DNA of 64,000 nt. Source: Escherichia phage vB_Ec-M-J. The stretch lies in the sequence record OQ718158.1; one strand, written 5' to 3'. Shown here one piece after another: positions 3,397 through 57,971 of this stretch; positions within the stretch are counted from its first letter, which is position 1, and the number at the start of each line of letters is the position of its first letter. Position numbers and translations under genes: made by a program. Under the pieces are notes generated by a model, which had not been told where the DNA came from, made no database searches, and was given only the letters and a program-made list of their open reading frames with translations.

Positions 3397-3512
<116 letters not shown>

Positions 3513-3516
3513 AAAT

Positions 3517-3602
<86 letters not shown>

Positions 3603-3619
3603 CAATTAAAGGTTAAACC

Positions 3620-3780
<161 letters not shown>

Positions 3781-3784
<4 letters not shown>

Positions 3785-3941
3785 CACATGAAGAATGGAT
3801 GAATGACATTAATTTTAGATATTCGGGTATCGGTAAATGGCTAAAGTATCATTGGGAATTCATTTCAGAGCCACATCTGTATGATAAACTTATCAACGAT
3901 CCAGCATATGAAATGTACTTAATTGAACTACTGGTACGAAT

Positions 3942-3945
<4 letters not shown>
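3781..3945 (+). CDS. hypothetical 54-aa protein, MTHEEW family copy 2
   Basis: Near-identical 5' half to copy 1; ATGA overlap. Confidence 0.55.
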
Positions 3946-4113
<168 letters not shown>

Positions 4114-4114
4114 G

Positions 4115-4536
<422 letters not shown>

Positions 4537-4540
<4 letters not shown>

Positions 4541-4565
4541 CTAAATAGTTCAGTACTGATATAAT
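4537..4565 (+). promoter_or_regulatory. sigma70-like promoter with cagtactg spacer
   Basis: TTGACT-N17-TATAAT. Confidence 0.6.
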
Positions 4566-4569
4566 GAAT

Positions 4570-4910
4570 TCCACAATCAGACGTATATGGTGTAAGTTAC
4601 GTCGATGTAATCCAGAACAAGATCTCTGGTACTCTAGGAAGTGGTGAATGTTAACCTAGACGGGTTTGATAATTGGACGATAGGCAATTATTACTTGACT
4701 AGCAGGTTTAAACTAGAGGTGACAGTCCTTTACCAAACTGGAAAACCGGATGGACTTTTATTTAAAAGGGTAAGGCGTGGAAATATGTTTACAGTAGTTG
4801 CTTTTAGTAGCCTGTACGCCCCACGTCAAGGTAGCCGAAAGGCAAGTTAAAACGGGTGGTTATAAAGCTGAATTAACAGCGGCGTTTAAAAGCGTCACCA
4901 TCCATTTTTT
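4570..4910 (+). ncRNA. candidate structured non-coding RNA (about 340 nt)
   Basis: Promoter-proximal, locally GC-richer, no convincing ORF, ends in T8 run. Confidence 0.3.
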
Positions 4911-4928
4911 TTAATTAAAGTTGGTGAT

Positions 4929-5568
<640 letters not shown>

Positions 5569-5572
5569 CAAA

Positions 5573-5730
<158 letters not shown>

Positions 5731-5755
5731 CAAAAAAAAACAATGAGAGGTATAA

Positions 5756-6253
<498 letters not shown>

Positions 6254-6254
6254 T

Positions 6255-6286
<32 letters not shown>

Positions 6287-6330
6287 GATTCCCGATTCAG
6301 TAGTTTTAAAGCAGACCCGTATGTGCCTAT

Positions 6331-6422
<92 letters not shown>

Positions 6423-6441
6423 AGAGGTACTTCGAGTATGC

Positions 6442-6493
<52 letters not shown>

Positions 6494-6582
6494 TCAGTAC
6501 TACTTTTTAATTGACATATCATTGGATGAGGTGTAATATGGTTCAAGAAGAAAACTGGGGTTTTTAACACAAAGAGGCCAAT

Positions 6583-6725
<143 letters not shown>

Positions 6726-6726
6726 A

Positions 6727-6766
<40 letters not shown>

Positions 6767-6882
6767 TCAGGTCGATTAGTTAAAAGAGTATAACACGGAC
6801 CTTGTAAGTCTGAATAATCAGTGCAATTCTGATATTGACCTCAAAAATGATATTTTTCTTACATATAAATACTCCATAATAT

Positions 6883-16217: not shown

Positions 16218-16639
16218 GGGGATACAATAAGATTTGTATTTTTGTATTTTTAGTTTGTGCAATCAATACATTTGGATATTACTGTACTGAAAACAACATT
16301 TCATATGGTTTAAATCCTTTGTGGTTTACAATTGCCAATGTAGCACAAATTGGTATTGCTGTTATGTCTGCACTTATGTTCTGTCCAATTGTCACTATGG
16401 ATACTGATCATGAAAGGCTTGGATTTATCCGTGATACTGGAGACGAACCTTACAGTAGATTGATTGTGTTGTATCCATTTATTGTTATTTTAGGTACTAA
16501 CATCCAACTTGGGTCTTTATCTAATAGTGTTACTTCAGCAGCCATTACAGTCTTTGCATTCACATTTTTTATGGTACACAAATCAGTACTCAAATGGCAC
16601 ATCACCAAAATGGCAGAGAAAGGTACGGAAAACAGTTGA
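16214..16639 (+). CDS. hypothetical membrane protein
   Basis: ATGA overlap; multiple hydrophobic segments. Confidence 0.55.
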   Translation: MRGYNKICIFVFLVCAINTFGYYCTENNISYGLNPLWFTIANVAQIGIAVMSALMFCPIVTMDTDHERLGFIRDTGDEPYSRLIVLYPFIVILGTNIQLGSLSNSVTSAAITVFAFTFFMVHKSVLKWHITKMAEKGTENS

Positions 16640-16664
16640 CGTGAGTTATTGAGAGATATATAAT
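16636..16664 (+). promoter_or_regulatory. sigma70-like promoter
   Basis: TTGACG-N17-TATAAT. Confidence 0.55.
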
Positions 16665-16956: not shown

Positions 16957-16985
16957 TTGACTTAACCAATAACATGGAGTACAAT
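16957..16985 (+). promoter_or_regulatory. sigma70-like promoter
   Basis: TTGACT-N17-TACAAT. Confidence 0.5.
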
Positions 16986-17711: not shown

Positions 17712-18209
17712 ATGACAACTGTTTATATTGATAAACGCTTGGGAGTATTACTTACTGATTCAAAAGTGACATCAACTGAGCAACGTTCATTTTTGAACCT
17801 ATTCCCGTTGAAGCCAAAACTTAGTTATGGTGTAGTTTCACAAAAAACATTGTATGTACACGACCGACTGTTTAGTGCTTGCGGTGAGGTTAGTGAAATT
17901 AACAAAGTACTGAGATACTTGATTTCACAAGAGACTGTGATACCAGACCGCAAGGCGAGTTGTCACTGTGTTCTTGTGTCAAAAGATTACATCATTCACT
18001 TAATCGTTAATAAGGGTAAGTTTACCAAGAAGATTGATTATCTCCATAATGATTATACATTCTTTATGGGTAGTGGTGGTGAATACATGCTTGATGCAGC
18101 AGTACATGAAGAGTATAATACTCTTCTTGATAAGGTATTTGATACCTTCATGGATGTTCATAACCATGATATCTATACCGATGATAATATTAATGTATAC
18201 CGTTTTTGA
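17712..18209 (+). CDS. hypothetical protein
   Basis: 165-aa ORF. Confidence 0.55.
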   Translation: MTTVYIDKRLGVLLTDSKVTSTEQRSFLNLFPLKPKLSYGVVSQKTLYVHDRLFSACGEVSEINKVLRYLISQETVIPDRKASCHCVLVSKDYIIHLIVNKGKFTKKIDYLHNDYTFFMGSGGEYMLDAAVHEEYNTLLDKVFDTFMDVHNHDIYTDDNINVYRF

Positions 18210-18231
18210 TTTCATTCATTAGGAGAAGTAA

Positions 18232-19200
18232 GTGAAAAAGCTTGATTTAAATGCAATTTCTGAAGAAGTACTGGATGAGTGTTTTGCTAGTGAAGAAGTC
18301 AACGTATTAGAGGCTCTTGATTCCGTAGAAGAAGAAGAAGAACATGACGGTCACAAGTTTGAGAAACCAAAAACAGGTATCAGCTTAACTCGCCCTAAAG
18401 GGATAACGAATGAAATGCTCATCCAAGCAGTGCGTGATGGCATAGACGTTAAAAAGAACATTGACCTTTTGGTTCGCTACAACTATCCAATGGTAGTAAG
18501 TGTTGCACGTAAGTGTACATGTTTTATCCCATTTGAAGATAAGATTTCTTATGGTGTTGAAGGTTTAATGCGAGCAATTCATACGTTCGACACTACCAAA
18601 AATGTTAAGTTCATTACATATGCAACAACAACTGTGTACATGACAATCTATAACGAAAGTGCAGATGCTAATTATCTAGTGCATTTCCCACGTTATATGA
18701 GTGTTAATAACATTTATGTGAAACGTTGTGTTGAAGAGTATCAAAGGAAACATGGTAAATACCCAACTCCTGAGATGGTGTCAAAAGAGACTGGTATTGA
18801 GATTCAACACGTTAAGAATTGTCTAACTTACAATAACACTTATGTAGCATTGAATATGAAAATGAGTAATGATTCAGAAAGTACATTATCTGACATTGTT
18901 ACTTCAGTTGAACCTGATTACAACTTAGGTGTAGAAACTGTCAGTACCCCACTGGTACAAAGTATTGCAGAAATGATGAGTAACCTATCTACCAAAGACC
19001 GTGAATTGATTGAACGTGTACATGGTATTGGTTCTTATTCTGAACCAGAAACGCTACGAGAAATCATTGAGAGTGGTTTTGAAGATGAGAAGGGTAAGGT
19101 CATGACTGCTCGTTCTTCATTGCACCGTAAGTACTCTGAAGCAATGGAACGACTGCGTAAGATGGTTAAGACAAAAGGTTATGAGTTCGAAGATTTTTAA
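18232..19200 (+). CDS. RNA polymerase sigma factor, sigma-70 family (phage-encoded)
   Basis: GTG start after AGGAGAAG; region-2-like GVEGLMRAIHTFD...KFITYATTTVYMTI and region-4-like LSTKDRELIERVHGIGSYSEPETLREI; acidic N-terminus. Confidence 0.6.
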   Translation: MKKLDLNAISEEVLDECFASEEVNVLEALDSVEEEEEHDGHKFEKPKTGISLTRPKGITNEMLIQAVRDGIDVKKNIDLLVRYNYPMVVSVARKCTCFIPFEDKISYGVEGLMRAIHTFDTTKNVKFITYATTTVYMTIYNESADANYLVHFPRYMSVNNIYVKRCVEEYQRKHGKYPTPEMVSKETGIEIQHVKNCLTYNNTYVALNMKMSNDSESTLSDIVTSVEPDYNLGVETVSTPLVQSIAEMMSNLSTKDRELIERVHGIGSYSEPETLREIIESGFEDEKGKVMTARSSLHRKYSEAMERLRKMVKTKGYEFEDF

Positions 19201-19207
19201 GATTAAA

Positions 19208-19236
19208 GGGTTGACTTCGGTCAGCCCTTTTTTTAT
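19208..19236 (+). terminator. intrinsic terminator (PeSL-like hairpin lacking the -10)
   Basis: gggttgacttcggtcagccc UUCG-loop hairpin followed by T7. Confidence 0.65.
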
Positions 19237-19239
19237 GGG

Positions 19240-19760
19240 ACAAATTTATTAATGGTGATACAATGATCTATGTACAATCACAATGACAGTACTGGTACTG
19301 ACAATCTTCCCCTACTTCACTTGAAAATGTAAAGGATAGATGAGCTTTTCATTGTAGCGAACAGCAAAAGAAACCCGTTAGATGTGGGCATAGTTTGAAC
19401 CCCTCACGGCAATGCGGCTGTATAAAGAACCACGTTAGGATAGCTGGTGGTTCCTCGATAGACATATAAGGATAACACCTTACGAATTATCTAAGGGAGA
19501 GTTATCGAATTTTGTACAGGAAAGTTGCGTCCAAAATTTGAGTACTCACATTAAGTATTTGATTGCATAGATACTTAATGAAGATACACTATGTTTAAAA
19601 GTGTAGACCGTCATATGAAACTGAAGTAGAGAGAAACAGGATGACCCGCTTTCGCACTCGTTATGAGTAATCTTCAATGCAATAGCTCTGATACCATTAG
19701 CGTCAAATTTCCCTCCGTGCGGGGGGGAAGAAAAATCCCTTCCTCAAATCCCGTCAATAT
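19240..19760 (+). ncRNA. ORF-free structured region, candidate non-coding RNA
   Basis: About 520 nt with no ORF of 60 aa or more on either strand, locally GC-richer, between terminator and next promoter. Confidence 0.3.
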
Positions 19761-19769
19761 TAAAAGTCC

Positions 19770-19798
19770 TTGACAGTTATGATTCATTCGCGTAGAAT
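19770..19798 (+). promoter_or_regulatory. sigma70-like promoter
   Basis: TTGACA-N17-TAGAAT. Confidence 0.55.
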
Positions 19799-20297: not shown

Positions 20298-21092
20298 ATG
20301 AGCACTATAGATGAATTGATTCGCCGGAATTCAAAATACTACGAACCATCAGAAATTGTCGGCAACATTACTAAATCTGAGTTCGGACCAAATACTCGAA
20401 AACTCATTCATGTAATGTCACGTGATGGCTTTAAATGTGATTGTTGTGGTGAATCCAATGTGGTATTCACTTTACATAAGCACAGTACTAAAGACCGTTA
20501 TAAATTCAGACCTTATGTACTTAAAGGGAAACGCCTTGTACGCATGACGTTAGACCATAATGTACTAGACTGTCTTCAGGGCGGTAATGATAAAGAGAAC
20601 ATGACTGCATTGTGTGAGGATTGTAACGCATTACGCCAGCATAAGTTTGCTGAGTACAGTGAGTTTAAGTACTGGTATCATAACGCAGATCGTTCCATCG
20701 AGCCTGACGTTAACTACTGCTTCATTGAGTACATTAAGAATGCAAAAGATACATACATTCTAAAATCAATGTCACCTATTACAGTGTTCCCTGAGAATCT
20801 ATTCAGTACTATGCAGCGTGATTTTAAACGTGGTATCATTAATGCATTCAAACACTTAGACAAAGGTATCAAGCACTTTGAGGTGCAATGCTTAAATGAA
20901 GGAATGAATCGTTTAGTACAAATTTACATGAAATCATTTATAGGTGTTGACACCGCACGTCTACCAGTATATAATTACTTTATTGAAAGCGAAGAAGGTG
21001 AATCACTTCGTGATTATGGTGAAAGATTTAATAATAAAGTTTTCACTGCAATCGCAAACGAGATTCATTACTATAAACCATATGTAATTTAA
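20298..21092 (+). CDS. HNH-family endonuclease-like protein
   Basis: ATG at 20298; KCDCCGE...LDHNVLDC...ALCEDCNALRQHK Cys/His/Asn motif. Confidence 0.5.
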   Translation: MSTIDELIRRNSKYYEPSEIVGNITKSEFGPNTRKLIHVMSRDGFKCDCCGESNVVFTLHKHSTKDRYKFRPYVLKGKRLVRMTLDHNVLDCLQGGNDKENMTALCEDCNALRQHKFAEYSEFKYWYHNADRSIEPDVNYCFIEYIKNAKDTYILKSMSPITVFPENLFSTMQRDFKRGIINAFKHLDKGIKHFEVQCLNEGMNRLVQIYMKSFIGVDTARLPVYNYFIESEEGESLRDYGERFNNKVFTAIANEIHYYKPYVI

Positions 21093-45205: not shown

Positions 45206-46330
45206 TTAATTATCTAAGCCACCAATTACACTGAACTGTGTGGTAACGTCTGAACTATTATCTATGTAAGTTCTTCGACCAACATAATATAGTTGTCCTT
45301 TTGCTTGAATAAAAGTTACGGTCCCTGTATTGAATGTTATAATATCATTGTATGTAATGTCAGGTGGTAGTGCTGCTGATAATGCAGTAACAGCACTTAA
45401 TGCAGCACTAGCACTACCATTTATACCAGCAGCAATACTACCAGTACCATAGAACTTATTATCTTTACCAATGAATACGTTGGCTGATGCTTGTGTAGCT
45501 GATGTTATTGCCTTACCAATTTGGAATGCGGTTCCTATGGTGTATGGTGTGCTCCTGGCTGCGTCTATGCTTTGTGTATATCCATCCCCTAGCTGACCAT
45601 TAACTTTGTCACCACATGAGTATAGAGTACCATTGAGGCTGTATATGATCCCACGGTTAGAGAAGCTAACAGCTTCTGCATTAGTCCATACTGGTGCGGT
45701 GTATGAGTTTACACGACTAGCGGTAGTTCCTAGACCTAGTATACCATATGTGTTATCACCACATCCAAACCATTGTCCAGAACTGTTTTGATAGAACACT
45801 GAACGTTCTGTTGATTCCATGCGTACAGCATCCACAGCACCACTTTTAACGAACGAAGTGGATGAGGATGTAGTACCAGTACCCAATGCACCATAAGTGT
45901 TTGTACCAATCGCATAGATTGATCCTAGTGGTGTCATAACACGTATGCAGTTATATCCCAATTGAACTTTACATTCAAATAGGTTGTCCCATATTTCAGG
46001 AACAGCAGAAAATAAATTTGTAATTTCGAACCATGATGTTGTCGAACCAGTTAATCCTATACTGCTTTTGTTTCCTAAAATGAAAACAGTTTTGTCCTTC
46101 TTAATTATCCATGATGATAGAAAGCCTATCTCACAGCTATGAACATTTGATTCGATTTGGGTAATATAATACTTAACGGTGTTATCACCCATAAATGCCG
46201 CAGCACCAGATGCAAAAAGGTTTCCAGTTTGTTTATTTAAAATGTAGTTATTGTTTCCATATACACTAACATCATAAGAACTTTCTTGTTTTTCGTTCCC
46301 ATAATCAAATAACAATACGAAAGGTAACAT
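45206..46330 (-). CDS. MLPF-family beta-propeller protein, paralog 1 of 15
   Basis: N-terminus MLPFVLLFDYGNE; RCC1-like blade CGDKVNGQLGDG; AAGGAG SD. Confidence 0.7.
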   Translation of the reverse strand: MLPFVLLFDYGNEKQESSYDVSVYGNNNYILNKQTGNLFASGAAAFMGDNTVKYYITQIESNVHSCEIGFLSSWIIKKDKTVFILGNKSSIGLTGSTTSWFEITNLFSAVPEIWDNLFECKVQLGYNCIRVMTPLGSIYAIGTNTYGALGTGTTSSSTSFVKSGAVDAVRMESTERSVFYQNSSGQWFGCGDNTYGILGLGTTASRVNSYTAPVWTNAEAVSFSNRGIIYSLNGTLYSCGDKVNGQLGDGYTQSIDAARSTPYTIGTAFQIGKAITSATQASANVFIGKDNKFYGTGSIAAGINGSASAALSAVTALSAALPPDITYNDIITFNTGTVTFIQAKGQLYYVGRRTYIDNSSDVTTQFSVIGGLDN

Positions 46331-46407
46331 GATAAAATCTCCTTGTGTTATACTTTATTTAATCATTTTATAATGTACAATTTTACAGCGATTTAATTGA
46401 GGTACTC
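46331..46407. promoter_or_regulatory. divergent promoter region
   Basis: A/T-rich 77-nt spacer between divergent starts, SD on each side. Confidence 0.4.
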
Positions 46408-47058
46408 ATGAATAAAAGAAGTAAGTTCTATCAAGAATATTTCACTAAACAGAAACGATTCACAAAAAAATACTTTACATCATCCCACCGACCAGTTGCA
46501 AGTTACAAACGTCCTAATACTAACTATCTTACTGGTGGCAAGTTTAGTGCAAAGTTCGAATTACTTATGCGTGAAAAGAATATCAAGATGCATTACGCAG
46601 AGACAAGAAAAAACTCATCAATTATTTGTTCTGATTTTCTTGAGTACGGTTGCTTAACTTATAAATTCAATGATGTATATTTGTATATTGATGTTGATTG
46701 TAACAGTACTCGTATGTTTGAGATTTCAATTCACCCAAATCACAACCGTTATATAAACATTAACTTGGTTGATAAAGTACTGATTGGTATATCTAGTACT
46801 GATGGTGGTGGATTTGAATTTATTGCTTCAAAATATGATGAAGATTTCGTACTTTACCCAGTACTTGATGATGTGAAAGATATTCTCAATTCATTAAAAG
46901 GAAGTCAATACAAATTATCTGAAGAACAGCTATTTCAGTACTCACTTATTCATGATGATATCGAGATATACTTAGAGTGTGCGAGAATCTTGGAGTATCT
47001 TTATAATGAACTAACAACAACTGGTAAAGTGACAGCATTCACATTATATAATATGTAA
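46408..47058 (+). CDS. hypothetical protein (EE-FQ motif family) embedded in the minus-strand array
   Basis: GAGG SD; SEEQLFQYSLIHDD motif. Confidence 0.6.
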   Translation: MNKRSKFYQEYFTKQKRFTKKYFTSSHRPVASYKRPNTNYLTGGKFSAKFELLMREKNIKMHYAETRKNSSIICSDFLEYGCLTYKFNDVYLYIDVDCNSTRMFEISIHPNHNRYININLVDKVLIGISSTDGGGFEFIASKYDEDFVLYPVLDDVKDILNSLKGSQYKLSEEQLFQYSLIHDDIEIYLECARILEYLYNELTTTGKVTAFTLYNM

Positions 47059-47091
47059 AAGAAAAAGCCAGTACATAGTACTGGCTTTATA
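47059..47091. terminator. bidirectional terminator
   Basis: gccagtacatagtactggc hairpin flanked by A-run and T-run. Confidence 0.6.
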
Positions 47092-48225
47092 TTAAACTGG
47101 TGGAGAATTATATGGCTCAAATTTATAAGTTGTCGTAGCAGTACCAGCAATGGCGTTGTTAGCTAGTATGTACATAGTCCTATAGTCGATTACTACCACA
47201 GTAATACTACCACCAAAAGCATAGTCTGTTATGTTATTAGTGTTGAATGGTAAATTAGATGAACTGGTCCATGTATTAGCTGTTGTGCTATTTGTACCAT
47301 TGGAATAGCCGACACTAGATGCACCAGTTGTCCATAAGTTTCCATCATTGAACAACGATACATGGTTAGCTGTATATGATTTATTAGGTATAGAACTATC
47401 AATTGGCGTATTCCAAACTTTAGTAACCCATGTTGTGACGGCTGTATTATTAGTAACACCATTACCTAACGAACCATTTATTGGTATACCTCTTATATAA
47501 GAAGTGTTAGTACTAGGGTCAACATATCCAAATGTATATGTATCAAATGCAAATTGAAAACAATCAGAACTCGGTAATGTGTACAGTAATGTATATGAAG
47601 ACGTGATTATTGATGAATTTGTACCGTTCACGCCTTGGTATAAAATACCACTACCCAATATTTGATTATTATTTTTTGTTATAGCAGTCATAGATGGATA
47701 TGTTTTTACTTCACGCACATCATTAGTTACATATGTTTGTGTTGATAATGCAACATTACTACCATTACCAATAACACCTGTATTTGCACCGCTTCCATAA
47801 AGTGAACCATCATTCAAAAGTACCATTGTGGCATTACTATTTCCAGTAATTGTTTTAATATTACTAACATCCACCGCAGCAAATACAGTTGATGTTAAAT
47901 CAGTGAAACGTGTATAATGTGATGTTGTGCCATTGATTGGTGTCGCAAAACCAGAATACAAAATTCTATTTTCTTTGGTAATAAGGAATGTTCCAGTAAC
48001 ACCGTTTGAATGGATATCAATAATATTATCGCCCATTAATACCCAATCACTTACGAATGTTGTACCAGCACCCAACCCATATGTCGTATTGTATCCACGT
48101 CCATACACTCTACCATCACTGAGTAATGTTACCACACATTGACCACCACCACCAAGGATAACTTTTTGGATAGTACTCTTTACTTTTATATTCCCGTACT
48201 TAACCATTCTTGCAAAAGGTAACAT
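47092..48225 (-). CDS. MLPF-family beta-propeller protein, paralog 2
   Basis: MLPFARMVKYGNIKV; Gly/Thr/Asn-rich body; conserved upstream box. Confidence 0.7.
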   Translation of the reverse strand: MLPFARMVKYGNIKVKSTIQKVILGGGGQCVVTLLSDGRVYGRGYNTTYGLGAGTTFVSDWVLMGDNIIDIHSNGVTGTFLITKENRILYSGFATPINGTTSHYTRFTDLTSTVFAAVDVSNIKTITGNSNATMVLLNDGSLYGSGANTGVIGNGSNVALSTQTYVTNDVREVKTYPSMTAITKNNNQILGSGILYQGVNGTNSSIITSSYTLLYTLPSSDCFQFAFDTYTFGYVDPSTNTSYIRGIPINGSLGNGVTNNTAVTTWVTKVWNTPIDSSIPNKSYTANHVSLFNDGNLWTTGASSVGYSNGTNSTTANTWTSSSNLPFNTNNITDYAFGGSITVVVIDYRTMYILANNAIAGTATTTYKFEPYNSPPV

Positions 48226-48295
48226 AATTCCCTCCTTTATTCTTTATACTATATTTAATCAAAAAGAAAAGCCAGTACTCTGTACTGGCATTATT
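48226..48295 (-). promoter_or_regulatory. array intergenic module: hairpin terminator plus conserved TATAA/SD box
   Basis: Minus-sense gccagtacagagtactggc-TTTTCTTTTTGATTAAATATAGTATAAAGAATAAAGGAGGGAATT-ATG. Confidence 0.55.
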
Positions 48296-49456
48296 TTAAA
48301 TTGGTGAATCTTCAACAAATATAGTACTAGCAGTACCACCAGATACTAGGTTAGTACCACTTGAATATATTTTGTTTCCATCTGTCATATATGTTTTACC
48401 ATAGCAACTTTGGATTTTAACATCTTTGAAATTCAAATCAGGAGTAATAGATTTAGTGTAAGTTAATACGTTAGTAGTTGAACCTGTACTTAATTGTCCA
48501 TAGTATGAAGTCGCTGAGTTATTACCAGCAACGTATACACCTGTGTCAGTAATAACAAAGTTAGAGTAATATCCGTACCCATATCCTATATCTAATATAT
48601 TTCCTTGTGGTTGATTTGCCACAACAGTTGTCAATATGTTGGTTGATGCTGCTGTATTAGTAGCAGCCTGTCCATATGATTGGTCACCACCAGTATACAC
48701 AGTAACAACAGACGTACTATTGTTTCTAGCAATACCTTGAACCATACCATTAACAGTACTTATAAATGCTATAGTACTAACAGTTGCTGGTAATCTATCT
48801 GATAATGCGAATACATTATAAAAACTCACGGTTGAAGTACTGTTAGTATCACCCTTAACTTCACCTGTGTAATATAGTCTACCACTTTCGGCAATAAACG
48901 AACACATGTTTATACCTGCAATAATCCTTTTCGGAACCGCACCACTTGGTATAATTGATTGTACTAAAGTAGAGAAACTGTTAGAATAAGAAGCATTCCC
49001 AAGCTGCCCTCCTGTGTTATAACCACCACTCCAAATTGTCCCATTACTCATAAGTATTGAAATGAAGTTATTCCCTAGTGATATTTCTGAAATTGTTCCT
49101 TGGGAATTAACTTGATTAATAACAGTTTGCATAGAAGTCCATGCATTAACAGATGATGTACCCATACACACATTGTATTGTCGCCCTGTGTATTGATATG
49201 TACCATCTGATTTGTGAATCATTGTAGCATACTGACCACACCATACATCAATGACATCCGATGCAGTTACTGTCCATGATGTTCTGGTTGTATTGTCTCC
49301 TAAACCCAACTGACCACTTGAATTGGAACCACGGGTATATAATTTACCATTACTACCCAATACCATAACCCAGTTATACCCTGCAACTAATTTTTTAATG
49401 GCAGCAGGGGATGGTGCAATGTTCCCGTAATCAAACAATCTTACAAAAGGTAACAT
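48296..49456 (-). CDS. MLPF-family beta-propeller protein, paralog 3
   Basis: Start set at MLPFVRLFDYGN (track ORF extends 13 codons upstream); GQLGLGDNTT and GGQLGN blades; AAGGAG SD. Confidence 0.7.
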   Translation of the reverse strand: MLPFVRLFDYGNIAPSPAAIKKLVAGYNWVMVLGSNGKLYTRGSNSSGQLGLGDNTTRTSWTVTASDVIDVWCGQYATMIHKSDGTYQYTGRQYNVCMGTSSVNAWTSMQTVINQVNSQGTISEISLGNNFISILMSNGTIWSGGYNTGGQLGNASYSNSFSTLVQSIIPSGAVPKRIIAGINMCSFIAESGRLYYTGEVKGDTNSTSTVSFYNVFALSDRLPATVSTIAFISTVNGMVQGIARNNSTSVVTVYTGGDQSYGQAATNTAASTNILTTVVANQPQGNILDIGYGYGYYSNFVITDTGVYVAGNNSATSYYGQLSTGSTTNVLTYTKSITPDLNFKDVKIQSCYGKTYMTDGNKIYSSGTNLVSGGTASTIFVEDSPI

Positions 49457-49469
49457 TTTTTTCTCCTTA

Positions 49470-50618
49470 TTATATTGATGGCATATCCAACACATATGAG
49501 TTGCTAGTAATTGATGAATATGTAGAATTTAAACCTGTACTATAAACATAATCACCTGCCCATAAGAATGTTCTATCCAATGTTGTATGTATTTCAATAT
49601 CATCATATGATGATAATGATATTTGTGCTAGTGTATATGTAGTAGCATCAATGTTTGAACCAATACCCAAAGTACCATTGTATTGTGATTGGGAGTTTTG
49701 ACCAGTTGCATATATACCAGATTTGGTTATTAAATGCTGATTGTACATTGACGTACCTTTAAACAATTTAATTAAATTAGAGTTAGGTGTAGTTATTGGT
49801 GCAGGAGCAAGTATTGTTGTTGTAGTGCCACCATCACCTAATTGTCCATATCGTTGGTAACCACCAGCGTATACCTGTTTAACTCCAGCCGTAGTTTCAA
49901 TAATAAAGAATGAACCATAGCCAGTAGTATTAAAGTCTATAATTTTATTTGTACTCAAACCAACATTATATCTAGTAAATGTTGTTGCATTTGCTGAACC
50001 ACCAGCATTCCCACCTACCATTTGCCCACTATAATAAAATGCTCCAGTACTGTCAGTATAAGCCATACAGTTCTCACTACCATAGATTTTTACTGGTGTA
50101 CTGGGGAAACTAGAGGTTATATTCACACATGTATTATATTTTGCAGTAGTTCCAGTAATTTCACCATTGTTGTTTTGCCCAATTACCCAAACTGTGTCAT
50201 CCGAACGTATAGCCATTGAGCTATAAAACGAGGATACAAATTGTTTAATAAAGGAACCAGGGAGAGAAGTAAGCATACTATTGATTTGTGCACTCACATT
50301 GGTCCATGTATTCACAACTGAATTGACACCTGCGGCTGCACCTGAACCAGAACTCCACCATGATTCATCATTCTTTTTAATCAATGTACCATTAGCAGAG
50401 CAATAAACATCAGCAACTGAACTATTAACTAATATCCATGCCCTCGCTGCTGTTGTATTACCAGTACCTAGCTGTCCTGCTGCATTACTACCCTTAGCAT
50501 ATAAATCTCCATTCTGCGTTAAAAGCATAGCATGTTGGTATCCAGTTGACAATTTCTTTATTTTTGGTAATGCTGGTGCTTCATTTCCATAATCAAACAT
50601 TCTAACAAAAGGTAACAT
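49470..50618 (-). CDS. MLPF-family beta-propeller protein, paralog 4
   Basis: MLPFVRMFDYGNEAP; AAGQLGTGNTT and YGQLGDGG blades; C-terminal YVLDMPSI. Confidence 0.7.
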   Translation of the reverse strand: MLPFVRMFDYGNEAPALPKIKKLSTGYQHAMLLTQNGDLYAKGSNAAGQLGTGNTTAARAWILVNSSVADVYCSANGTLIKKNDESWWSSGSGAAAGVNSVVNTWTNVSAQINSMLTSLPGSFIKQFVSSFYSSMAIRSDDTVWVIGQNNNGEITGTTAKYNTCVNITSSFPSTPVKIYGSENCMAYTDSTGAFYYSGQMVGGNAGGSANATTFTRYNVGLSTNKIIDFNTTGYGSFFIIETTAGVKQVYAGGYQRYGQLGDGGTTTTILAPAPITTPNSNLIKLFKGTSMYNQHLITKSGIYATGQNSQSQYNGTLGIGSNIDATTYTLAQISLSSYDDIEIHTTLDRTFLWAGDYVYSTGLNSTYSSITSNSYVLDMPSI

Positions 50619-50689
50619 AATTCCCTCCTTTATTCATTATACTATATTTAATCAAAAAGAAAAGCCAGTACTCAAGTACTGGCATTATC
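50619..50689 (-). promoter_or_regulatory. array intergenic module: hairpin terminator plus conserved TATAAT/SD box
   Basis: Minus-sense gccagtacttgagtactggc-TTTTCTTTTTGATTAAATATAGTATAATGAATAAAGGAGGGAATT-ATG. Confidence 0.55.
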
Positions 50690-51868
50690 TTAAAATTGTG
50701 GTAGTTGGTATTCAGTTAATGTCCATGTACCTGTAACTGTTCCATTCGGGGACATCCCTGTGTAGTATAATTTGCCACCAGCGTATACAAATAATGCATT
50801 GTCATTAGCAGCAACCATCGAAGTTTCTGGATCAAATACTACAGAAATTGGTAATTGTGATTGAACAAATACTGACGCATTGGTAGTTGAATTGTTACCA
50901 AGTTGTCCATAGTTGTTATACCCAGTACTGAAAATACGGCTACCATTTCTATATAATATACCCCTAGTACTTTGTGAATGTAGATCTATAAATTCAAAAT
51001 CGGAAACATTAGTTAATTGCAAATAAGTACTTTGTGGAGTTAGTGCTGTCTTATTCGTATTGGTTGTAACTCCATTACCTAATTGACCGTAAAATTGTGA
51101 TCCTAAACCATATAGCGGATAAGTACCATCTGAATAAAGAACTATACCCAACATCTTATTATGTGAAAGAATATCTATTGGATATTTCCCTGTACCAAAG
51201 TCGTATCTAGTCCAAGACGTTAATGTAGCCGACGCTGCCCCAGTTAACAAAGTACCAGTGGTAGTTGTGCCACATCGCCACGCTGAATTATCATTCTTAA
51301 TTATCCAAGTTGGACTATTAAAAAATGAACTAACCTTTTTAACATTAATATTGACCTGGGTTAATTCTGTAAGCATTGATGAACTTGAACCCAACTCATA
51401 TGTGGAGTTATTACCTATTGCATAAAGAACCCCACTATTTGTTAGTACAAACAAATTACGAACATTAGGATATATCTCTTTAATATCATCAATATTAATA
51501 CCCGAAAAATAAGAAGTACATTCCACAAAGGTAGTACTTTGTACTTCACTCGATGCACCTGTCCAGGTGTTCCATCCTGCATAATAAAATTTATTATCAT
51601 TAGTCTGTACTAAGCTATATGAAGAGTTCCTAGTGCACCAGAAATTTTTCACATTTTGCATTAATCGAACCCATGATGTCTGTGTTGTAGTATTACCCAG
51701 TCCGAAAATACCAGCATTGTTTCCACCGATACCCCACAAATCACCGTTACTATACTGTAGCATCAATGTATTGTTGGTGAACGCTGATGGTGCTTGCATT
51801 TTAATTACATTAGCTGATGGTGCAGGTTTAATATTCCCGTACTTAACCATTCTTGCAAAAGGTAACAT
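50690..51868 (-). CDS. MLPF-family beta-propeller protein, paralog 5
   Basis: MLPFARMVKYGNIKP; YGQLGNG blades; C-terminal EYQLPQF. Confidence 0.7.
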   Translation of the reverse strand: MLPFARMVKYGNIKPAPSANVIKMQAPSAFTNNTLMLQYSNGDLWGIGGNNAGIFGLGNTTTQTSWVRLMQNVKNFWCTRNSSYSLVQTNDNKFYYAGWNTWTGASSEVQSTTFVECTSYFSGINIDDIKEIYPNVRNLFVLTNSGVLYAIGNNSTYELGSSSSMLTELTQVNINVKKVSSFFNSPTWIIKNDNSAWRCGTTTTGTLLTGAASATLTSWTRYDFGTGKYPIDILSHNKMLGIVLYSDGTYPLYGLGSQFYGQLGNGVTTNTNKTALTPQSTYLQLTNVSDFEFIDLHSQSTRGILYRNGSRIFSTGYNNYGQLGNNSTTNASVFVQSQLPISVVFDPETSMVAANDNALFVYAGGKLYYTGMSPNGTVTGTWTLTEYQLPQF

Positions 51869-51943
51869 ATATTTTTCCTCCTTTATTCATTATACTATAT
51901 TTAATCAAAACGAAATGCCAGCACTCAAGTACTGGCATTATTG
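51869..51943 (-). promoter_or_regulatory. array intergenic module
   Basis: Same hairpin plus TATAATGAATAAAGGAGG box. Confidence 0.55.
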
Positions 51944-53134
51944 TTATAGTTGTCTTGGAGTATCAAGTACATATCTATTTGTACTAGGACCACCATCATC
52001 ATAAGTTCCGGTTGAATATATATTTTTCATATCAGCAGTTAGGAAAGTACGTAACGACCCTCGATATATTTTTATTTTATCATACATAGAATATGTTATT
52101 TCTGACGGCAATGGACATGCAGTAAATTTACCAATGGTAACATTAGAACCAACACCCAATGAACCAGCATAACTACTCGCATTTAAACCTGTTGCATATA
52201 CACCAGAACTCGTAACTAGTATACTAGATTGTGCTGGGTATCCAGTATGAATTGAATACAAAGTACCGGGTGGTAAGGTTGTACTATTATTTCCTAATAC
52301 TGCTCGTGCTGTACTAGACGTAGTGTTATTACCCCATGCCCCATTATTGGCGTTCCCACCCACTAGGAACTGACGTGCTCCTGTACTTGGATTCTCCACT
52401 AAAGCACTGACTGCACCAATTGTACATACAACATATTGTAATGTTTTTGTATATGTTGTACTTGGCTGATATAAAGTATATTGATTGTATGGAGTCCATG
52501 TATCAGTAGTACTTATACCTGATGTACTACCACCAATATATAAATTATTTTGTGTATCATAAAACATTACACAGCTATTTGTTGACTGTATTCGTGCAAT
52601 ATCAACATTAGGCGTGACAGCTTTTACAAATGATCCATCTGTTATTTGCTGAGTACTACCAGTACCATCAGCGAATTGTCTAGCCCCACTCCAACCAGTA
52701 CTCCATATTGTATTATTATCCATTAAGAAAGTAAACCAAGTAGTACCTGCATACATCTGTTTAATTGAAGTACCTGAACTTTGTGTGTACAAATTTTCAA
52801 TATATTGGTTATAACTTAAAAATGATGTAGTACTAGTTTCTAAACCAATATGACTACCATATCCACAATAAAAATAATTTAAGTCCTTATCTTGAACTAA
52901 CAAAGTTCCTTGTGTCATCCAGCAATCTTTGACATTTTCTCTAATTAATGTCCACGACCTTACTGCATTATTATTTCCGCGACCGAACTTCCCATAACTA
53001 TTATTTCCTCGTGCGTATAGTTGACCGTCAGTATAAAGTACAACCACATCAGTATCAGTTGGTATTATTTTCTTAATTAGAAGAGGTTCAGGTGTGATAT
53101 TCCCATAATCAAACAATCTAACAAAAGGTAACAT
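51944..53134 (-). CDS. MLPF-family beta-propeller protein, paralog 6
   Basis: MLPFVRLFDYGNITP; C-terminal YVLDTPRQL. Confidence 0.7.
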   Translation of the reverse strand: MLPFVRLFDYGNITPEPLLIKKIIPTDTDVVVLYTDGQLYARGNNSYGKFGRGNNNAVRSWTLIRENVKDCWMTQGTLLVQDKDLNYFYCGYGSHIGLETSTTSFLSYNQYIENLYTQSSGTSIKQMYAGTTWFTFLMDNNTIWSTGWSGARQFADGTGSTQQITDGSFVKAVTPNVDIARIQSTNSCVMFYDTQNNLYIGGSTSGISTTDTWTPYNQYTLYQPSTTYTKTLQYVVCTIGAVSALVENPSTGARQFLVGGNANNGAWGNNTTSSTARAVLGNNSTTLPPGTLYSIHTGYPAQSSILVTSSGVYATGLNASSYAGSLGVGSNVTIGKFTACPLPSEITYSMYDKIKIYRGSLRTFLTADMKNIYSTGTYDDGGPSTNRYVLDTPRQL

Positions 53135-53204
53135 ATTTTCCTCCTTTATTCATAATACTATATTTAACCAAAAAGAAAAGCCAGTACTTGATACTGGCGT
53201 AATG
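53135..53204 (-). promoter_or_regulatory. array intergenic module
   Basis: gccagtatcaagtactggc hairpin plus conserved box. Confidence 0.55.
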
Positions 53205-54347
53205 TCAATAAGCTTCCCACGGTAAGGGTGTCTTCCTAAATCCATACCTGGTTGTGGTCGCACCATCACCAGCAATGTATCGACCGATACCACATTGGTA
53301 TAACTCTGTACTACTACATATAGCACCACCAATAGTACCACTACTCCACAGAATTATATTAGAATATGTTATTGGTAAATCACTACATTTAGTATATACA
53401 CCAACGGTAGCAGTCCCACTAATACCACCAAACATACTTCGGTTAGCACCAGTATAATATATACCATCTGGACTCATAAATGCAGAGGTGTAAGTTGTAC
53501 TACAATCCACTGGACTTCTTATAGTATTAAGATCGCCTGGGTATGTCCTGACACCAAAGGTGTATACATTACCATCAGTTGTAATACCATTACCTAACTG
53601 CCCACTGTTTTGTCCACCACATGTAAGCAACAATGCAGAACCAGAAACAATTGCAGTAGCATTATACGAAGTACCCATCGCAATAGAAGCACCAGACAAT
53701 AGTTTTGGAGTAACAATAGCTGTTGTATTACCCTGGCCTAATTCACCATTGATATTTCGTCCCCATGCGTATATAGAAGTTGTATCCAATCGACATAGTA
53801 CTGAACCATAACTAAACGTATATCGCATGTCAATTACCGCATTAGGCAAATTAACCTTAGTTGCAACACTAATAACACCACCAGTAACACCACTGTTTGC
53901 GTTCATGTTACGACCATATGCATATAAAGAACCATCTGAAGTTTTAATATGCATCATACCATCTGTACAATACAATGCATCTATACTATCCACTGCAACC
54001 GGACCCATACTGGTAGTTATATCGGTCCACCCAAGCGTGGTAGTACTGGAAATTAAGTTATTTCCGGCGTATAGTATTCTATTATTATTAGTAACTACAA
54101 CTGTATATCTGGCAGTAACACCAATTAATCGAACATCAGTATATATCTTAGACCACGCACCTAATGAATTGGTGTTTGCATCCAAAAAGCCCAACTGCCC
54201 ATCTGTATTGTATCCAATACCCCATACATCACCTGCACTGTCCAATAACACTTCATGTGAAAATCCAATCTTAAAATCTTTTATTGTAGGAACTACCGGA
54301 ACTGGTGCAATATTCCCGTACTTAACCATTCTAGCAAAAGGTAACAT
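53205..54347 (-). CDS. MLPF-family beta-propeller protein, paralog 7
   Basis: MLPFARMVKYGNIAP; DGQLGF, GELGQGNTT and SGQLGNG blades. Confidence 0.7.
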   Translation of the reverse strand: MLPFARMVKYGNIAPVPVVPTIKDFKIGFSHEVLLDSAGDVWGIGYNTDGQLGFLDANTNSLGAWSKIYTDVRLIGVTARYTVVVTNNNRILYAGNNLISSTTTLGWTDITTSMGPVAVDSIDALYCTDGMMHIKTSDGSLYAYGRNMNANSGVTGGVISVATKVNLPNAVIDMRYTFSYGSVLCRLDTTSIYAWGRNINGELGQGNTTAIVTPKLLSGASIAMGTSYNATAIVSGSALLLTCGGQNSGQLGNGITTDGNVYTFGVRTYPGDLNTIRSPVDCSTTYTSAFMSPDGIYYTGANRSMFGGISGTATVGVYTKCSDLPITYSNIILWSSGTIGGAICSSTELYQCGIGRYIAGDGATTTRYGFRKTPLPWEAY

Positions 54348-54423
54348 AATTCCCTCCTTTATTCATTATACTATATTTAATACAAAAAAGAAAAGCCAGC
54401 ACTCAAGTACTGGCATTTTAATT
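54348..54423 (-). promoter_or_regulatory. array intergenic module
   Basis: Hairpin plus conserved box. Confidence 0.55.
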
Positions 54424-55572
54424 TTAACGAGGTATAACTATTTTTTTGAATAATCCAGTATTTCCTGCATTTTCTTCTTCATATGGAATTGTACCCATAC
54501 CAGCAGTTCTGCCACCATTCCCTGAACCATACAGTTCTCCATTCTTAATCATGAATGTTATCATATAACCATGTGTCATTTTATCATATGGAACTGGTTC
54601 AGTTATATTATTACATGCTCGCCATGTACTAATAACACTAGAGTTCGTTATACCATCACCTGATGCGTTTCCTCGACCAGCGAAATACCATATCCCACCT
54701 GCTCTAACGTGTGCTTCATAATTAGAACCACCTATGTAATCAATCGCAGTACTAGGAATACTAGAAGCTGGTATCTTTGTGATTGTTCTAAGACTGTTAA
54801 TAGTGCCATTAGTACCATCACCCAACTGTCCATATATTTGTGAACCGAATACATATAGCCCATCACTCTTTAATACGTAATTAGCACTATATGCATTTTC
54901 TGAATTTACCTGTAATACTCCAGTAGTAACAGTAGTCAATGTGGTGGTAGTTGTACCAGTCGAACCAATACTAGATTTATTCCCACTGTACTTTAATATT
55001 CCATTATTGTATAATACAAATGAAGCATTATCAGCGGTTACACCAATATCTTTAACATCAACTTCTGGTGTCAATGTCAGTACTGATACTCTTTGGTCAA
55101 CAGCCCCAGTAAAAACTTCACCGTTGTTATTGTAACCCATCTTATATAATTTATTATCTATTGTTAATAATAATGTAACGCCGTTTCCTATAACTATTTT
55201 ACTATATGTGTCATTCACATCATCAAAAATACCAAGTATTTCTGTCCATACACGATAAGTAGTATTAACACCACGATAGATTTGAGCACCAGTACTCCAC
55301 CATGTGCCATCATTTTTACGTACTAATATTCCATGTGTATTACCAGTAGTCCAAAATTCCTTTACATCAGTTAAACATAAAACCCACTCTTCAACTATAG
55401 TAGGAGAACTACTACCAGTACCTAATTGATAGTAAAAATTATGCCCTCTGCCATATAATCTTCCGTCTTCTAATAAAATAAACACATTATTCTGTAAAAC
55501 TTTTACCATCTTTATACCAACTGGCACAGGTGCTTCATTCCCATAATCAAACATTCTAACAAAAGGTAACAT
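54424..55572 (-). CDS. MLPF-family beta-propeller protein, paralog 8
   Basis: MLPFVRMFDYGNEAP; YYQLGTG and YGQLGDG blades. Confidence 0.7.
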   Translation of the reverse strand: MLPFVRMFDYGNEAPVPVGIKMVKVLQNNVFILLEDGRLYGRGHNFYYQLGTGSSSPTIVEEWVLCLTDVKEFWTTGNTHGILVRKNDGTWWSTGAQIYRGVNTTYRVWTEILGIFDDVNDTYSKIVIGNGVTLLLTIDNKLYKMGYNNNGEVFTGAVDQRVSVLTLTPEVDVKDIGVTADNASFVLYNNGILKYSGNKSSIGSTGTTTTTLTTVTTGVLQVNSENAYSANYVLKSDGLYVFGSQIYGQLGDGTNGTINSLRTITKIPASSIPSTAIDYIGGSNYEAHVRAGGIWYFAGRGNASGDGITNSSVISTWRACNNITEPVPYDKMTHGYMITFMIKNGELYGSGNGGRTAGMGTIPYEEENAGNTGLFKKIVIPR

Positions 55573-55643
55573 ATTTCCCTCCTTTATTCATTATACTATA
55601 TTTAATTCAAAAAGAAAAGCCAGTATCAAGTACTGGCATTATG
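55573..55643 (-). promoter_or_regulatory. array intergenic module
   Basis: Hairpin plus conserved box. Confidence 0.55.
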
Positions 55644-56753
55644 TTATTTTGGTAAATCAATTTTAGTAAAGACTGCAACATCCTCGCTTGCCCCTGGGAT
55701 GGCGTAATAAGAACCAGTACTATATACATCTCCGTCTTTTGTTAATATTGAAGTTAAACCATCACTAAAAAGAACATCACTAATCTCACTAACTGAAACA
55801 GGTAATTGTAAATTAGTAGCACTATATATTGCACCAGTTTGAGAATTGTTTAATCCCAAACCACGGTTCGCCCCAACACCCTTCTGATATGTACTAGTAA
55901 TTATAATTTGTGTAGCAGTATTTAATGCAGGTGAATTCGTCATAAACAACGGAGAACTATTAGGCAAAGAACTTACAGGAACTGCACGAAATGTAGTTGT
56001 ATCTGAACTAAGAAAGTTTGGCGTTTGACCACATACGAAATATGATGTACCATTATAGTAATTAAATGCATTACCACCTATAGCTGCATCTATTACTCCA
56101 GTACTACGTAATCCCCACGTGTTAATTTGTGTTCGGTTCCCCGTGCCATGCTGACCCCTGTCATTCCACCCAGAACTATATAACTTATTATCTAATGTAA
56201 TATACATACTGTCATTTGAATTCGTCATTACTTTACGCACATTAGTAGCACATTGAGTTAATGTGTAAATTGATGATGAACCAATACCTAAAGCACCACG
56301 ATATCCATTAGCCCCTGCACCATAGAGTACTGAACTAGTGCTAAGTACAAATATTAAACCATACGAACATACTATATCAGCAATTTCATTTACCGATAGT
56401 ACACTCGTAAACCACGCAGTCCTATCAACTAATACAGTACTGTAAGAAGTCCCAGTAGAAGACGAAAACCAATAAGTCTCACCAGCAGTCCATATAGTAT
56501 TGTCACTCTTAATAACAACAACTGTACGATCACCAGCAAAAAAATTAGTAACTTCTGTACTCACTAATCTCCATGAAGATACAGTGTTGGTATTACCATT
56601 TCCAGATTCACCACCTTGATTTCTACCTATGTAATATAAATCATGTGAATCAGTCAATAAGAATTGACCCTGTGTAGACGCACCAACTTTTATTATATTT
56701 TTAGGACCAGGTGTGATATTCCCATAATCAAACATTCTTACAAAAGGTAACAT
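55644..56753 (-). CDS. MLPF-family beta-propeller protein, paralog 9
   Basis: MLPFVRMFDYGNITP; RGQHGTGNRT blade; C-terminal FTKIDLPK. Confidence 0.7.
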   Translation of the reverse strand: MLPFVRMFDYGNITPGPKNIIKVGASTQGQFLLTDSHDLYYIGRNQGGESGNGNTNTVSSWRLVSTEVTNFFAGDRTVVVIKSDNTIWTAGETYWFSSSTGTSYSTVLVDRTAWFTSVLSVNEIADIVCSYGLIFVLSTSSVLYGAGANGYRGALGIGSSSIYTLTQCATNVRKVMTNSNDSMYITLDNKLYSSGWNDRGQHGTGNRTQINTWGLRSTGVIDAAIGGNAFNYYNGTSYFVCGQTPNFLSSDTTTFRAVPVSSLPNSSPLFMTNSPALNTATQIIITSTYQKGVGANRGLGLNNSQTGAIYSATNLQLPVSVSEISDVLFSDGLTSILTKDGDVYSTGSYYAIPGASEDVAVFTKIDLPK

Positions 56754-56763
56754 ATTTCTCTCC

Positions 56764-57894: not shown

Positions 57895-57971
57895 AACTAA
57901 TTCTCCAAATTCAAATAATTATAATGTATTTACAAAAAAAATACCAGCACATATTTCAGTACTGGTATCAT
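57895..57971 (-). promoter_or_regulatory. array intergenic module (variant box)
   Basis: Hairpin with cagtactg core plus TGTAAATACATTATAAT and GGAG SD. Confidence 0.5.

Follow-up and report, generated by a model that had tools for sequence, protein, structure and literature searches.

A sigma-70-family protein of an Escherichia jumbo phage and a candidate class of middle promoters with a matching −35 box

Our subject is a gene for a 322-residue protein of the sigma-70 family in a window of 64,000 nucleotides (nt) of Escherichia phage vB_Ec-M-J (sequence record OQ718158.1; unless stated otherwise, positions are those of this whole stretch), together with a second promoter class of the phage and a structured-RNA-like element just downstream of the gene. 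We propose that this sigma factor is made early and would redirect the host core RNA polymerase to middle promoters serving replication genes, a late sigma gene and RNA units, a reading to which we give a probability of about 60%. From the family membership of the protein, its early-type context, three promoter classes, the genes behind the middle class and the co-variation of promoter box and protein helix, we infer core binding, promoter recognition and timing.

The gene product is a true member of the sigma-70 family, nearest to the group 1 and group 2 sigmas, yet it fails their defining features. Pfam Sigma70_r2 (PF04542) matched at 2.6e-9 (37.2 bits, above the curated cut-off of 24), Sigma70_r3 (PF04539) matched at 1.4e-11 (44.8 bits, above the curated cut-off of 25.3), and PHROG 351 'RNA polymerase sigma factor' matched the entire protein at 3.2e-48. 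The best NCBIfam models were RpoD_Cterm, SigB, cyanobacterial RpoD and RpoS, each far under its equivalog cut-off. RpoD_Cterm matched residues 79–297 at 2.4e-27 with 96.1 bits (cut-off 354), and rpoS_proteo reached 81.7 bits (cut-off 378.7), below the level of an RpoS equivalog. PHROG 351 was the only PHROG match, and none of the late-sigma families matched, as they would for a sigma of the T4 gp55 type. Together with the fold match to sigma-S described below, these results bear out the preliminary description, made from the sequence alone, in which the open reading frame (ORF) had been read by eye as a phage-encoded sigma-70-family protein. The segment GVEGLMRAIHTFD...KFITYATTTVYMTI, which it had called region-2-like, aligned to regions 2.2–2.4 of sigma-70, and LSTKDRELIERVHGIGSYSEPETLREI, called region-4.2-like, aligned in SigA, SigB and RpoD to region 4.1 and to helix 1 of the 4.2 helix-turn-helix. 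Its acidic N-terminus was also confirmed, with 15 D/E against 2 K/R in residues 1–40. The term 'full-length' goes too far: region 1.1 and the non-conserved region are lacking, the RpoD_Cterm score lies far below its cut-off, and Pfam region 1.2 (PF00140) did not match the phage sigma, although it does match the cellular sigma relatives.

Profile searches recovered region 2 in the single protein, above the curated cut-offs, and region 4 at the family level only. The Pfam region 4 profile matched 7 of the 14 phage orthologues at E<=1. A profile built from phage members only aligned to solved primary sigmas at 1e-30, always through region 4.1 or early 4.2, and reached the recognition helix with Thermus sigma-A (Taq and Tth; up to profile position 303). 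Alignment and fold together place the helix-turn-helix of region 4, as the SigB alignments run to residue 309 and the RpoS alignments to residues 316–320. The word-indexed homologue search returned 16 matches, consisting of close relatives and a few cellular sigmas, and the distant orthologues were taken from phage records. Structure prediction gave confident sigma domains. An AlphaFold2 model based on a 16-sequence alignment, which replaced an unusable single-sequence run with a predicted local distance difference test score (pLDDT) of 38, had a pLDDT of about 80 in sigma-2 and sigma-3 and of 85–90 in sigma-4, with helices at residues 254–264, 275–280 and 294–315 of region 4. The best PDB matches in Foldseek were sigma-S, followed by sigma-A and primary sigmas in initiation complexes (E ~1e-11, ~265 columns); the TM-scores (template modelling) were low, which we attribute to domain arrangement alone.

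For a residue-by-residue comparison we aligned 14 phage orthologues with E. coli sigma-70, whose sequence was confirmed against PDB 4jk1_X. In total, 21 columns were invariant over the 14 orthologues, at identities down to 29%. Region 2 has kept N84 (sigma-70 N383), D103 (D403), M113 (M413), F127 (F427) and Y130 (Y430), which correspond to the −10 pockets (Y430, F427, N383) and to the core-binding helix (D403, M413). The W433/W434 dyad is replaced by T133/T134 here, and by T, S, A or V in all 14 orthologues. Further replacements are Y/M for R436/Q437, Y for T440, N for R441 and Y/V for H455/E458. In region 4.2, an insertion of ~8 residues separates the two helices of the helix-turn-helix; it is present in 14 of the 14 phage orthologues with G282, D285 and G288 invariant, is absent from sigma-70, and is modelled as a small beta-hairpin. 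Of the five residues that read TTGACA in sigma-70, the recognition helix retains R584 alone (R294), while E585 is replaced by S, R586 by S, R588 by H and Q589 by R. The protein is therefore a sigma-70-family member and not a normal RpoD or RpoS, given the lost WW dyad, the 4.2 insertion and the change of four out of five −35-reading residues. The two ends of the protein carry motifs that the phage family conserves and cellular sigmas lack. In the N-terminal motif L6 and F18 are invariant and I9 nearly so; AlphaFold2 predicted a helix at residues 6–17, at low pLDDT, and a variable acidic linker then runs to about residue 58. T4 gp33 and gp55 have clamp-binding tails, which the acidic-aromatic C-terminus of the phage sigma recalls.

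Promoters were scanned in a composite genome, consisting of the 361 kb jumbo phage Escherichia phage Turkey3 and the window. Sigma-70 sites with at least 11 of 12 consensus bases numbered 110 on the + strand and 7 on the − strand (n = 117), and were clustered at 280–330 kb and 0–20 kb. Among 236 upstream regions, TATAAT was found in 103, TTGACA in 39 and the T4-late-like TAAATA in 54. Alignment on the −10 box yielded a second class, with −35 box GGGACA, GAGACA or AGGACA, a 16-nt spacer and the extended −10 TG(A/C)TATAAT. A genome-wide scan with the strict form G(G/A)GACA-N16-TGnTATAAT gave 19 matches, all on the + strand and none on the − strand, whereas third-order Markov genomes led us to expect 0.17. 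In an internal control, we took the share of NN-GACA hexamers that had a −10 box at a distance of 16–18 nt: it was 0.26 with TT as NN, 0.215 with GG and 0.17 with GA, and none of the other 13 dinucleotides exceeded 0.058. The second class also differed from the host class in its modal spacer (16 versus 17) and in the share of promoters with a TG extension (74% versus 29%).

Second-class promoters precede the genes for DNA polymerase, sliding clamp, ssb, primase, exonuclease, a Dda-like helicase and gyrase B. They also precede four non-coding units and the gene for a gp55-like late sigma, which is a separate gene (Turkey3 191531–192370; PHROG 12791 at 1.4e-152, PHROG 234 at 1.5e-16). In Turkey3 this late sigma gene is annotated merely as 'RNA polymerase', at 191432–192370. 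The annotated start probably lies 33 codons too far upstream, because the annotated 5' end encloses a second-class promoter (191446–191473), and 191531 offers ATG as a start codon together with GGAG.

The −35 box of the second class and the recognition helix of the sigma vary together. PBECO4, KP13-7, CBB, SE_PL and XaC1 share the gene order of the replication module, and in the orthologous replication promoters the extended −10 is constant, whereas the −35 box is lineage-specific and stays in the same register. Helix RSSLHRKY accompanies box G(A/G)GACA in the window phage, as does RSSIHRKY in PBECO4; RTSLHRCY is found with (TT)GGGACA in SE_PL, RGTLHYKF with TGAACA in KP13-7, KATLSRRY with GAAACG in CBB, and KPTLSRRY with GAAACA in XaC1. 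The pattern of boxes appeared both at the chosen orthologous sites and in a scan anchored solely on the extended −10. A blind prediction was made for phage EJP2: from the helix RCTIHRRY, a box G-(A/G)-G-A was expected, and the sequence at the replication promoters of this phage was indeed GAGACA/GAGATA-N16-TGTGATATAAT. In a wider test, sigma genes from viral contigs were paired with the promoters of the RNA element as an independent set of loci, and three helix classes coincided with three box classes in 19 genomes or contigs. In addition, N, R and S at the position equivalent to sigma-70 residue 441 went with A/C, G and C, respectively, as the base at −13. Judged from these sequences, class-level co-variation of helix and box is all that holds.

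Region 4.2 of the host primary sigma is essentially invariant among these hosts. Hence, a −35 box that differs between phages needs a phage-encoded reader. The phage sigma was the only candidate found with a rightly placed DNA-reading helix that changes in step with the box.

The mechanism that we propose runs as follows. The sigma would be made early from host-type promoters by unmodified E. coli holoenzyme, and would then displace sigma-70 on the host core RNA polymerase. Recognition of the altered −35 box would fall to the remodelled region 4.2 helix RSSLHRKY, which follows the predicted beta-hairpin insertion, while regions 2 and 3 would read the near-consensus extended −10. Promoters of the form G(G/A)GACA-16 nt-TG(A/C)TATAAT would in this way switch on DNA polymerase, sliding clamp, ssb, primase, exonuclease, helicase and gyrase. 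The gene for the gp55-like late sigma and four structured RNA units, one of them directly 3' of the sigma gene, would come under the same middle class. The result would be a three-step cascade, from host sigma-70 to this sigma and on to the gp55-like sigma at TAAATA late promoters. In support of this mechanism, the authors of the work on CBB and GAP32 independently reported promoters that they call 'divergent RpoD-like', with TGAAACG as −35, ahead of genes for DNA synthesis, placed the CBB orthologue CBB_513 in the presumed early region, and also described a late motif like that of T4 and a sigma of the gp55 kind (PMC5259590). In a broader form, at somewhat less than even odds in our judgement, the sigma family and its promoters may be a co-evolving recognition pair, in which the remodelled region 4.2 gives each lineage a private regulon of middle genes with its own −35 box (G(G/A)GACA, TGAAAC or TTGAACA), and in which the sigma also drives the RNA copies. 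If the RNA were a primer at a replication origin rather than a new regulatory RNA, synthesis of the sigma would license middle transcription and replication alike.

The preliminary description had suggested a transcriptional switch, with an 'array box' as candidate target. The switch still appears to be the best reading, with the dispersed G(G/A)GACA-N16-TGnTATAAT class as its likely target in place of the array box: no array was found near the gene, where the sole repeat signal was the RNA element with its four copies. The palindrome AGTACT was considered as a sigma target and rejected, as it had no specific relation to the sigma. It was about 8-fold over the expectation from base composition (990 versus 121 in the genome, 187 versus 22 in the window), and sits in terminator stems, in hairpins of the RNA element and in one promoter-cassette family.

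Several points weigh against the proposed role of the sigma. Pfam Sigma70_r4 (PF04545) did not match the 322-residue protein alone, even at E<=10. The core-contact residues Q406, E407 and N409 and the W433/W434 melting dyad are lost, which places the efficiency of core binding and melting in doubt. The co-variation rests on about three to four independent lineage splits, and shared ancestry may explain part of it. A code of one residue for one base had to be rejected, since KP13-7 and RaK2 keep R and H yet have the box TGAACA. E. coli sigma-70 can dispense with a −35 box at promoters that have an extended −10; middle-class promoters may therefore also be active with the host holoenzyme, and a separate phage activator binding the −35 box is possible.

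The last two points lead to the rival explanation that survives best, although we consider it unlikely. Here, host sigma-70 would use the extended −10 aided by a separate phage activator on the box, in a sigma appropriation of the MotA/AsiA kind, and the phage sigma would serve other promoters, e.g. of the TTGACA or AAAAAGTACTTGCAA type, after inactivation of the host sigma. That TGnTATAAT promoters work without −35 contact, and that TG is carried by 74% of the class, is in its favour, as is a large repeated family AAAAAGTACTTGCAA-N17-TATAAT with a non-canonical −35 at 4–20 kb of the genome. However, the box lies at the canonical −35 with a fixed 16-nt spacer, unlike the MotA box at −30, and it co-varies with the sigma's own helix, including the prediction borne out in EJP2. 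The changes E585S, R586S, R588H and Q589R are, moreover, incompatible with TTGACA reading in the manner of sigma-70. A tblastn search for AsiA, MotA and gp33 with T4 queries, which is a weak test, found nothing below E=1.7.

Considerably less probable is that the protein acts as a competitor or decoy, which would occupy core RNA polymerase or another sigma-binding partner and shut off the host without productive initiation. Such a role would fit the replacement of W433/W434 (T, S or A) in every member, the differences at several core-contact residues of region 2.2, and the conserved acidic N-terminal module and acidic-aromatic C-tail. Yet group 3 sigmas initiate without the WW dyad, the residues Y430, F427 and N383 never vary, and regions 3 and 4 have persisted in phages of hosts from Escherichia to Xanthomonas. 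The helix, furthermore, is constant within lineages and differs between them in step with the box. A decaying or dispensable acquisition from a cellular RpoD or RpoS with no specific role, as might be suspected of the most diverged gene locally (60% amino acid identity to PBECO4), is effectively refuted by conservation, namely by an ORF intact in all ~70 related jumbo phage genomes with full-length matches, by the 21 invariant columns over 14 orthologues, by the retention of family-specific insertions and termini, and by the standing of the sigma as a hallmark of the group (PMC7824862).

The features of the locus are collected in Table 1. Judged from its surroundings, the sigma gene lies in an early unit, because sigma-70 consensus promoters (16636 and 16957) are located upstream and a strong terminator downstream; the annotation of UE-S1 has a terminator at the equivalent position. 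The strong host-type promoters nearby, which the preliminary description had pointed out, were found again: the window contains 30 sites with at least 11 of 12 consensus bases, 13 of them within 10–30 kb, and all on the + strand. The host-type promoter at 19770–19798 is predicted to restart early transcription for the downstream genes. The gene at 17712–18209, which ends 22 nt 5' of the sigma gene, encodes a distant homologue of HslV-family peptidases (PHROG 1040, 2.8e-6; no Pfam match), and is also diverged (75% amino acid identity to PBECO4). An HNH endonuclease gene (PHROG 35175) is found at 20298–21092, two genes 3' of the sigma gene. The other neighbours are small genes of unknown function.

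Table 1. Features of the sigma locus and copies of the RNA element, with window coordinates unless Turkey3 is named.
Feature	Position	Strand	Basis or remark
Host-type promoter TTGACG-17-TATAAT, nearest strong one 5' of the sigma operon	16636..16664	+	11/12 consensus
Second host-type promoter TTGACT-17-TACAAT	16957..16985	+	10/12 consensus
Ribosome-binding site AGGAG, 6 nt 5' of the GTG start	18221..18225	+	Sequence reading
Sigma-70-family gene, GTG start, 322 residues, TAA stop	18232..19200, stop included	+	ORF read, profile searches
N-terminal family motif MKKLDLNAIxxEVLDECFxxEE, residues 1-22	18232..18297	+	Orthologue alignments
Sigma region 2, residues 80-142	18469..18657	+	PF04542, residue map to sigma-70
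Sigma region 3, residues 163-225	18718..18906	+	PF04539 1.4e-11, pLDDT ~80
Sigma region 4, ~residues 240-315	18949..19176	+	AlphaFold2 pLDDT 85-90; SigB, SigA and Taq sigma-A alignments
Insertion GFEDEKGKVMT between the two helices of the 4.2 helix-turn-helix	19075..19107	+	Orthologue alignment, model
Region 4.2 recognition helix ARSSLHRKYSEAMERLRK	19108..19161	+	Residue map to sigma-70
Acidic-aromatic C-terminal tail KGYEFEDF, conserved, residues 315-322	19174..19197	+	Orthologue alignments
Intrinsic terminator, 11-bp GC-rich stem, T-run	19205..19237	+	Ends the early unit with the sigma gene
Candidate target-class promoter GGGACA-N16-(TGA)TACAAT	19237..19264	+	Scan; conserved in PBECO4 and UE-S1
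Non-coding structured-RNA-like element, ~490 nt	19271..19757	+	Conservation, covariation
Host-type promoter TTGACA-17-TAGAAT	19770..19798	+	Consensus scan
Paralogues of the RNA element in Turkey3	61880-62410, 111739-112307, 196187-196680		

The gene-free gap of 660 nt 3' of the sigma gene opens with the middle-class promoter at 19237–19264, and contains the RNA element. The genome has four copies of this element, all of them in stretches without genes and immediately 3' of a middle-class promoter, and copies at ~70% identity are found across jumbo phages of the Rak2/121Q/CBB type. At 27 of the 27 non-redundant copies, the promoter typical of the lineage was present. RNAalifold predicted 64 base pairs, of which 40 had compensatory changes. 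In a MAFFT alignment, 95.8% of the cells could pair, compared to 39–45% when the 3' partners were slid. The covariation score was 0.50, against 0.08–0.10 in the slid controls, and none of 500 shuffles reached the observed values. Many copies have an internal intrinsic terminator, followed by a conserved CCCCTGCGGGGGG hairpin.

Rfam 15, searched permissively at E<=1 with the gap and five divergent copies, gave chance-level matches only, and a search of the gap for tRNA and tmRNA found none. Two other identities were considered and dropped. The RNA-seq-verified ncRNA002 of PA5oct (451 nt) gave no nhmmer match as a homologue, and the conserved blocks are absent from it. A hammerhead reading of 'GATGAG...CGAA' failed, as the core misfits CUGANGA and Rfam was negative. 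The element is a candidate for a new structured RNA family, on the evidence of its conservation and covariation, and possibly serves as a regulatory or scaffold RNA. T4 origins combine a middle promoter with an unwinding element, and ColE1 RNA II is a folded pre-primer RNA of 555 nt. By analogy with these two systems, the element might possibly be a pre-primer at a replication origin.

Parts of the RNA element were 96–100% identical at the nt level to PBECO4 and UE-S1, compared to 64–67% for the sigma gene and 72–95% for the other neighbours. The fast-diverging sigma gene directly adjoins this most conserved stretch. The sigma was the most diverged protein locally, with 60% amino acid identity to PBECO4, where its neighbours reached 75–95% and primase 92%. 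Synonymous sites between the sigma genes of the two phages were saturated at this amino acid identity. The divergence was concentrated in the acidic linker and in regions 3–4 outside the recognition helix; recombination and an arms race are both possibilities.

The window was 99.8% identical over 4 kb to Turkey3, 97–99% identical to fEgEco12, WPEC3/5, EC.P1 and CMSTMSU, and ~85% identical to the Asteriusvirus phages 121Q and PBECO4. In the records of Turkey3, fEgEco12, WPEC5 and BF17, the gene carries the label 'RNA polymerase sigma factor', with proteins that are 99% identical. A tblastn search retrieved 71 phage records with full-length relatives (at least 80% coverage) and an intact ORF, from phages of Escherichia, Klebsiella, Salmonella, Erwinia, Pectobacterium, Serratia, Yersinia, Cronobacter and Xanthomonas. 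Full-length collinearity, the 4.2 insertion (D-x-x-G), the N-terminal motif and a syntenic neighbourhood (PBECO4, UE-S1, KP13-7) unite them in one orthologous group.

Jumbo phages of group 2 have genes for sigma factors and none for an RNA polymerase; one of the sigmas is described as 'close to cellular RpoD', and sigmas of this kind are a hallmark of the Rak2/121Q type (PMC7824862). Near-identical or orthologous sigmas have been discussed in PMC5259590, PMC7824862, PMC11895373 and PMC13070987. The sigma gene itself is already known and annotated, and ordinary for this phage group; what we add is the promoter class with its assigned regulon, and the adjoining structured RNA family. Neither a worked-out role for the sigma nor a link between the divergent −35 box and its recognition helix was found in the literature searched, including PMC5259590, which names the gene and lists promoter motifs.

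The sigmas of the Rak2/121Q/GAP32/CBB type (CBB_513, 121Q gp167, PBECO4 gp356) are orthologues of the phage sigma, and share with it the early-region position, the domain layout, the 4.2 insertion, the N-terminal motif and the loss of WW. Unlike the flanking genes (75–95% identical), the sigma is only ~60% identical to the 121Q and PBECO4 protein. The best matches in sequence and fold were E. coli RpoS, the C-terminal part of RpoD and actinobacterial SigB, with regions 2.1–4.2 collinear. In contrast to these proteins, the phage sigma has no region 1.1 and no region 1.2 match, and has M/Y/N in place of Q437/T440/R441.

Among other phages, SPO1 of Bacillus offers the same concept. Its gp28 is an early product that replaces the host primary sigma and turns on the middle genes, and a later phage sigma serves the late genes. 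SPO1 gp28 is smaller than the sigma described here, and SPO1 middle promoters differ from the host promoters in both −35 and −10. In the middle class described here, the −10 is still TATAAT-like, and the departure from the host promoters is confined to the −35 box, the spacer and the TG extension. An RpoD-like sigma is missing from T4; AsiA and MotA re-tool the host sigma-70, and the MotA box is centred at −30. Unlike T4, the present phage encodes a full sigma with its own region 4. The temporal logic, the gp55-like late sigma, the TATAAATA-like late promoter and the excellent extended −10 of the middle promoters are T4-like (see also PMC7824862).

For the role of the sigma, our model offers 19 strict promoter copies, a defined regulon and a correspondence of helix and box that predicts the outcome of swaps. 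Natural region 4.2 variants with matched −35 boxes would supply orthogonal pairs of sigma and promoter for synthetic biology. Relatives of the phage are under development for therapy against E. coli, Klebsiella and Salmonella, and knowledge of the temporal programme aids their annotation and engineering. The RNA family, which is clade-wide, multi-copy, under its own promoters and outside Rfam, was the least expected thing in the locus.

Several other features were observed elsewhere in the window and in Turkey3. At 45206–63775 on the − strand, ~15 paralogous genes encode proteins of 370–400 residues, which are labelled 'E3 ubiquitin-protein ligase HERC1' in Turkey3 and probably carry RCC1-like repeats. 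Each is preceded by a terminator hairpin containing AGTACT and a late-type TAAATATAGTATAAT unit, and in this run the window is ~3.5 kb (~3 copies) shorter than Turkey3. Outside the window, at 4–20 kb of Turkey3, tiny genes are densely packed and carry near-identical cassettes composed of an A-tract, AGTACTTGCAA, N17, TATAAT and gttttacatc, with TTGCAA as −35 instead of TTGACA. These are probably immediate-early genes for host takeover. A cluster of tRNA genes (Ser-TGA, Ser-GCT, Met, Asn and Thr) lies at 3423–6842 of the window, and an HNH homing endonuclease is nearby in Turkey3. Over the first 10 kb, the window is ~2 kb shorter than Turkey3. At 3620–3964, a tandem duplication with a period of 161 nt (2.1 copies, 83% match) gives rise to two adjacent ORFs of 54 residues, and its counterpart in Turkey3 comprises three ORFs of 165 nt.

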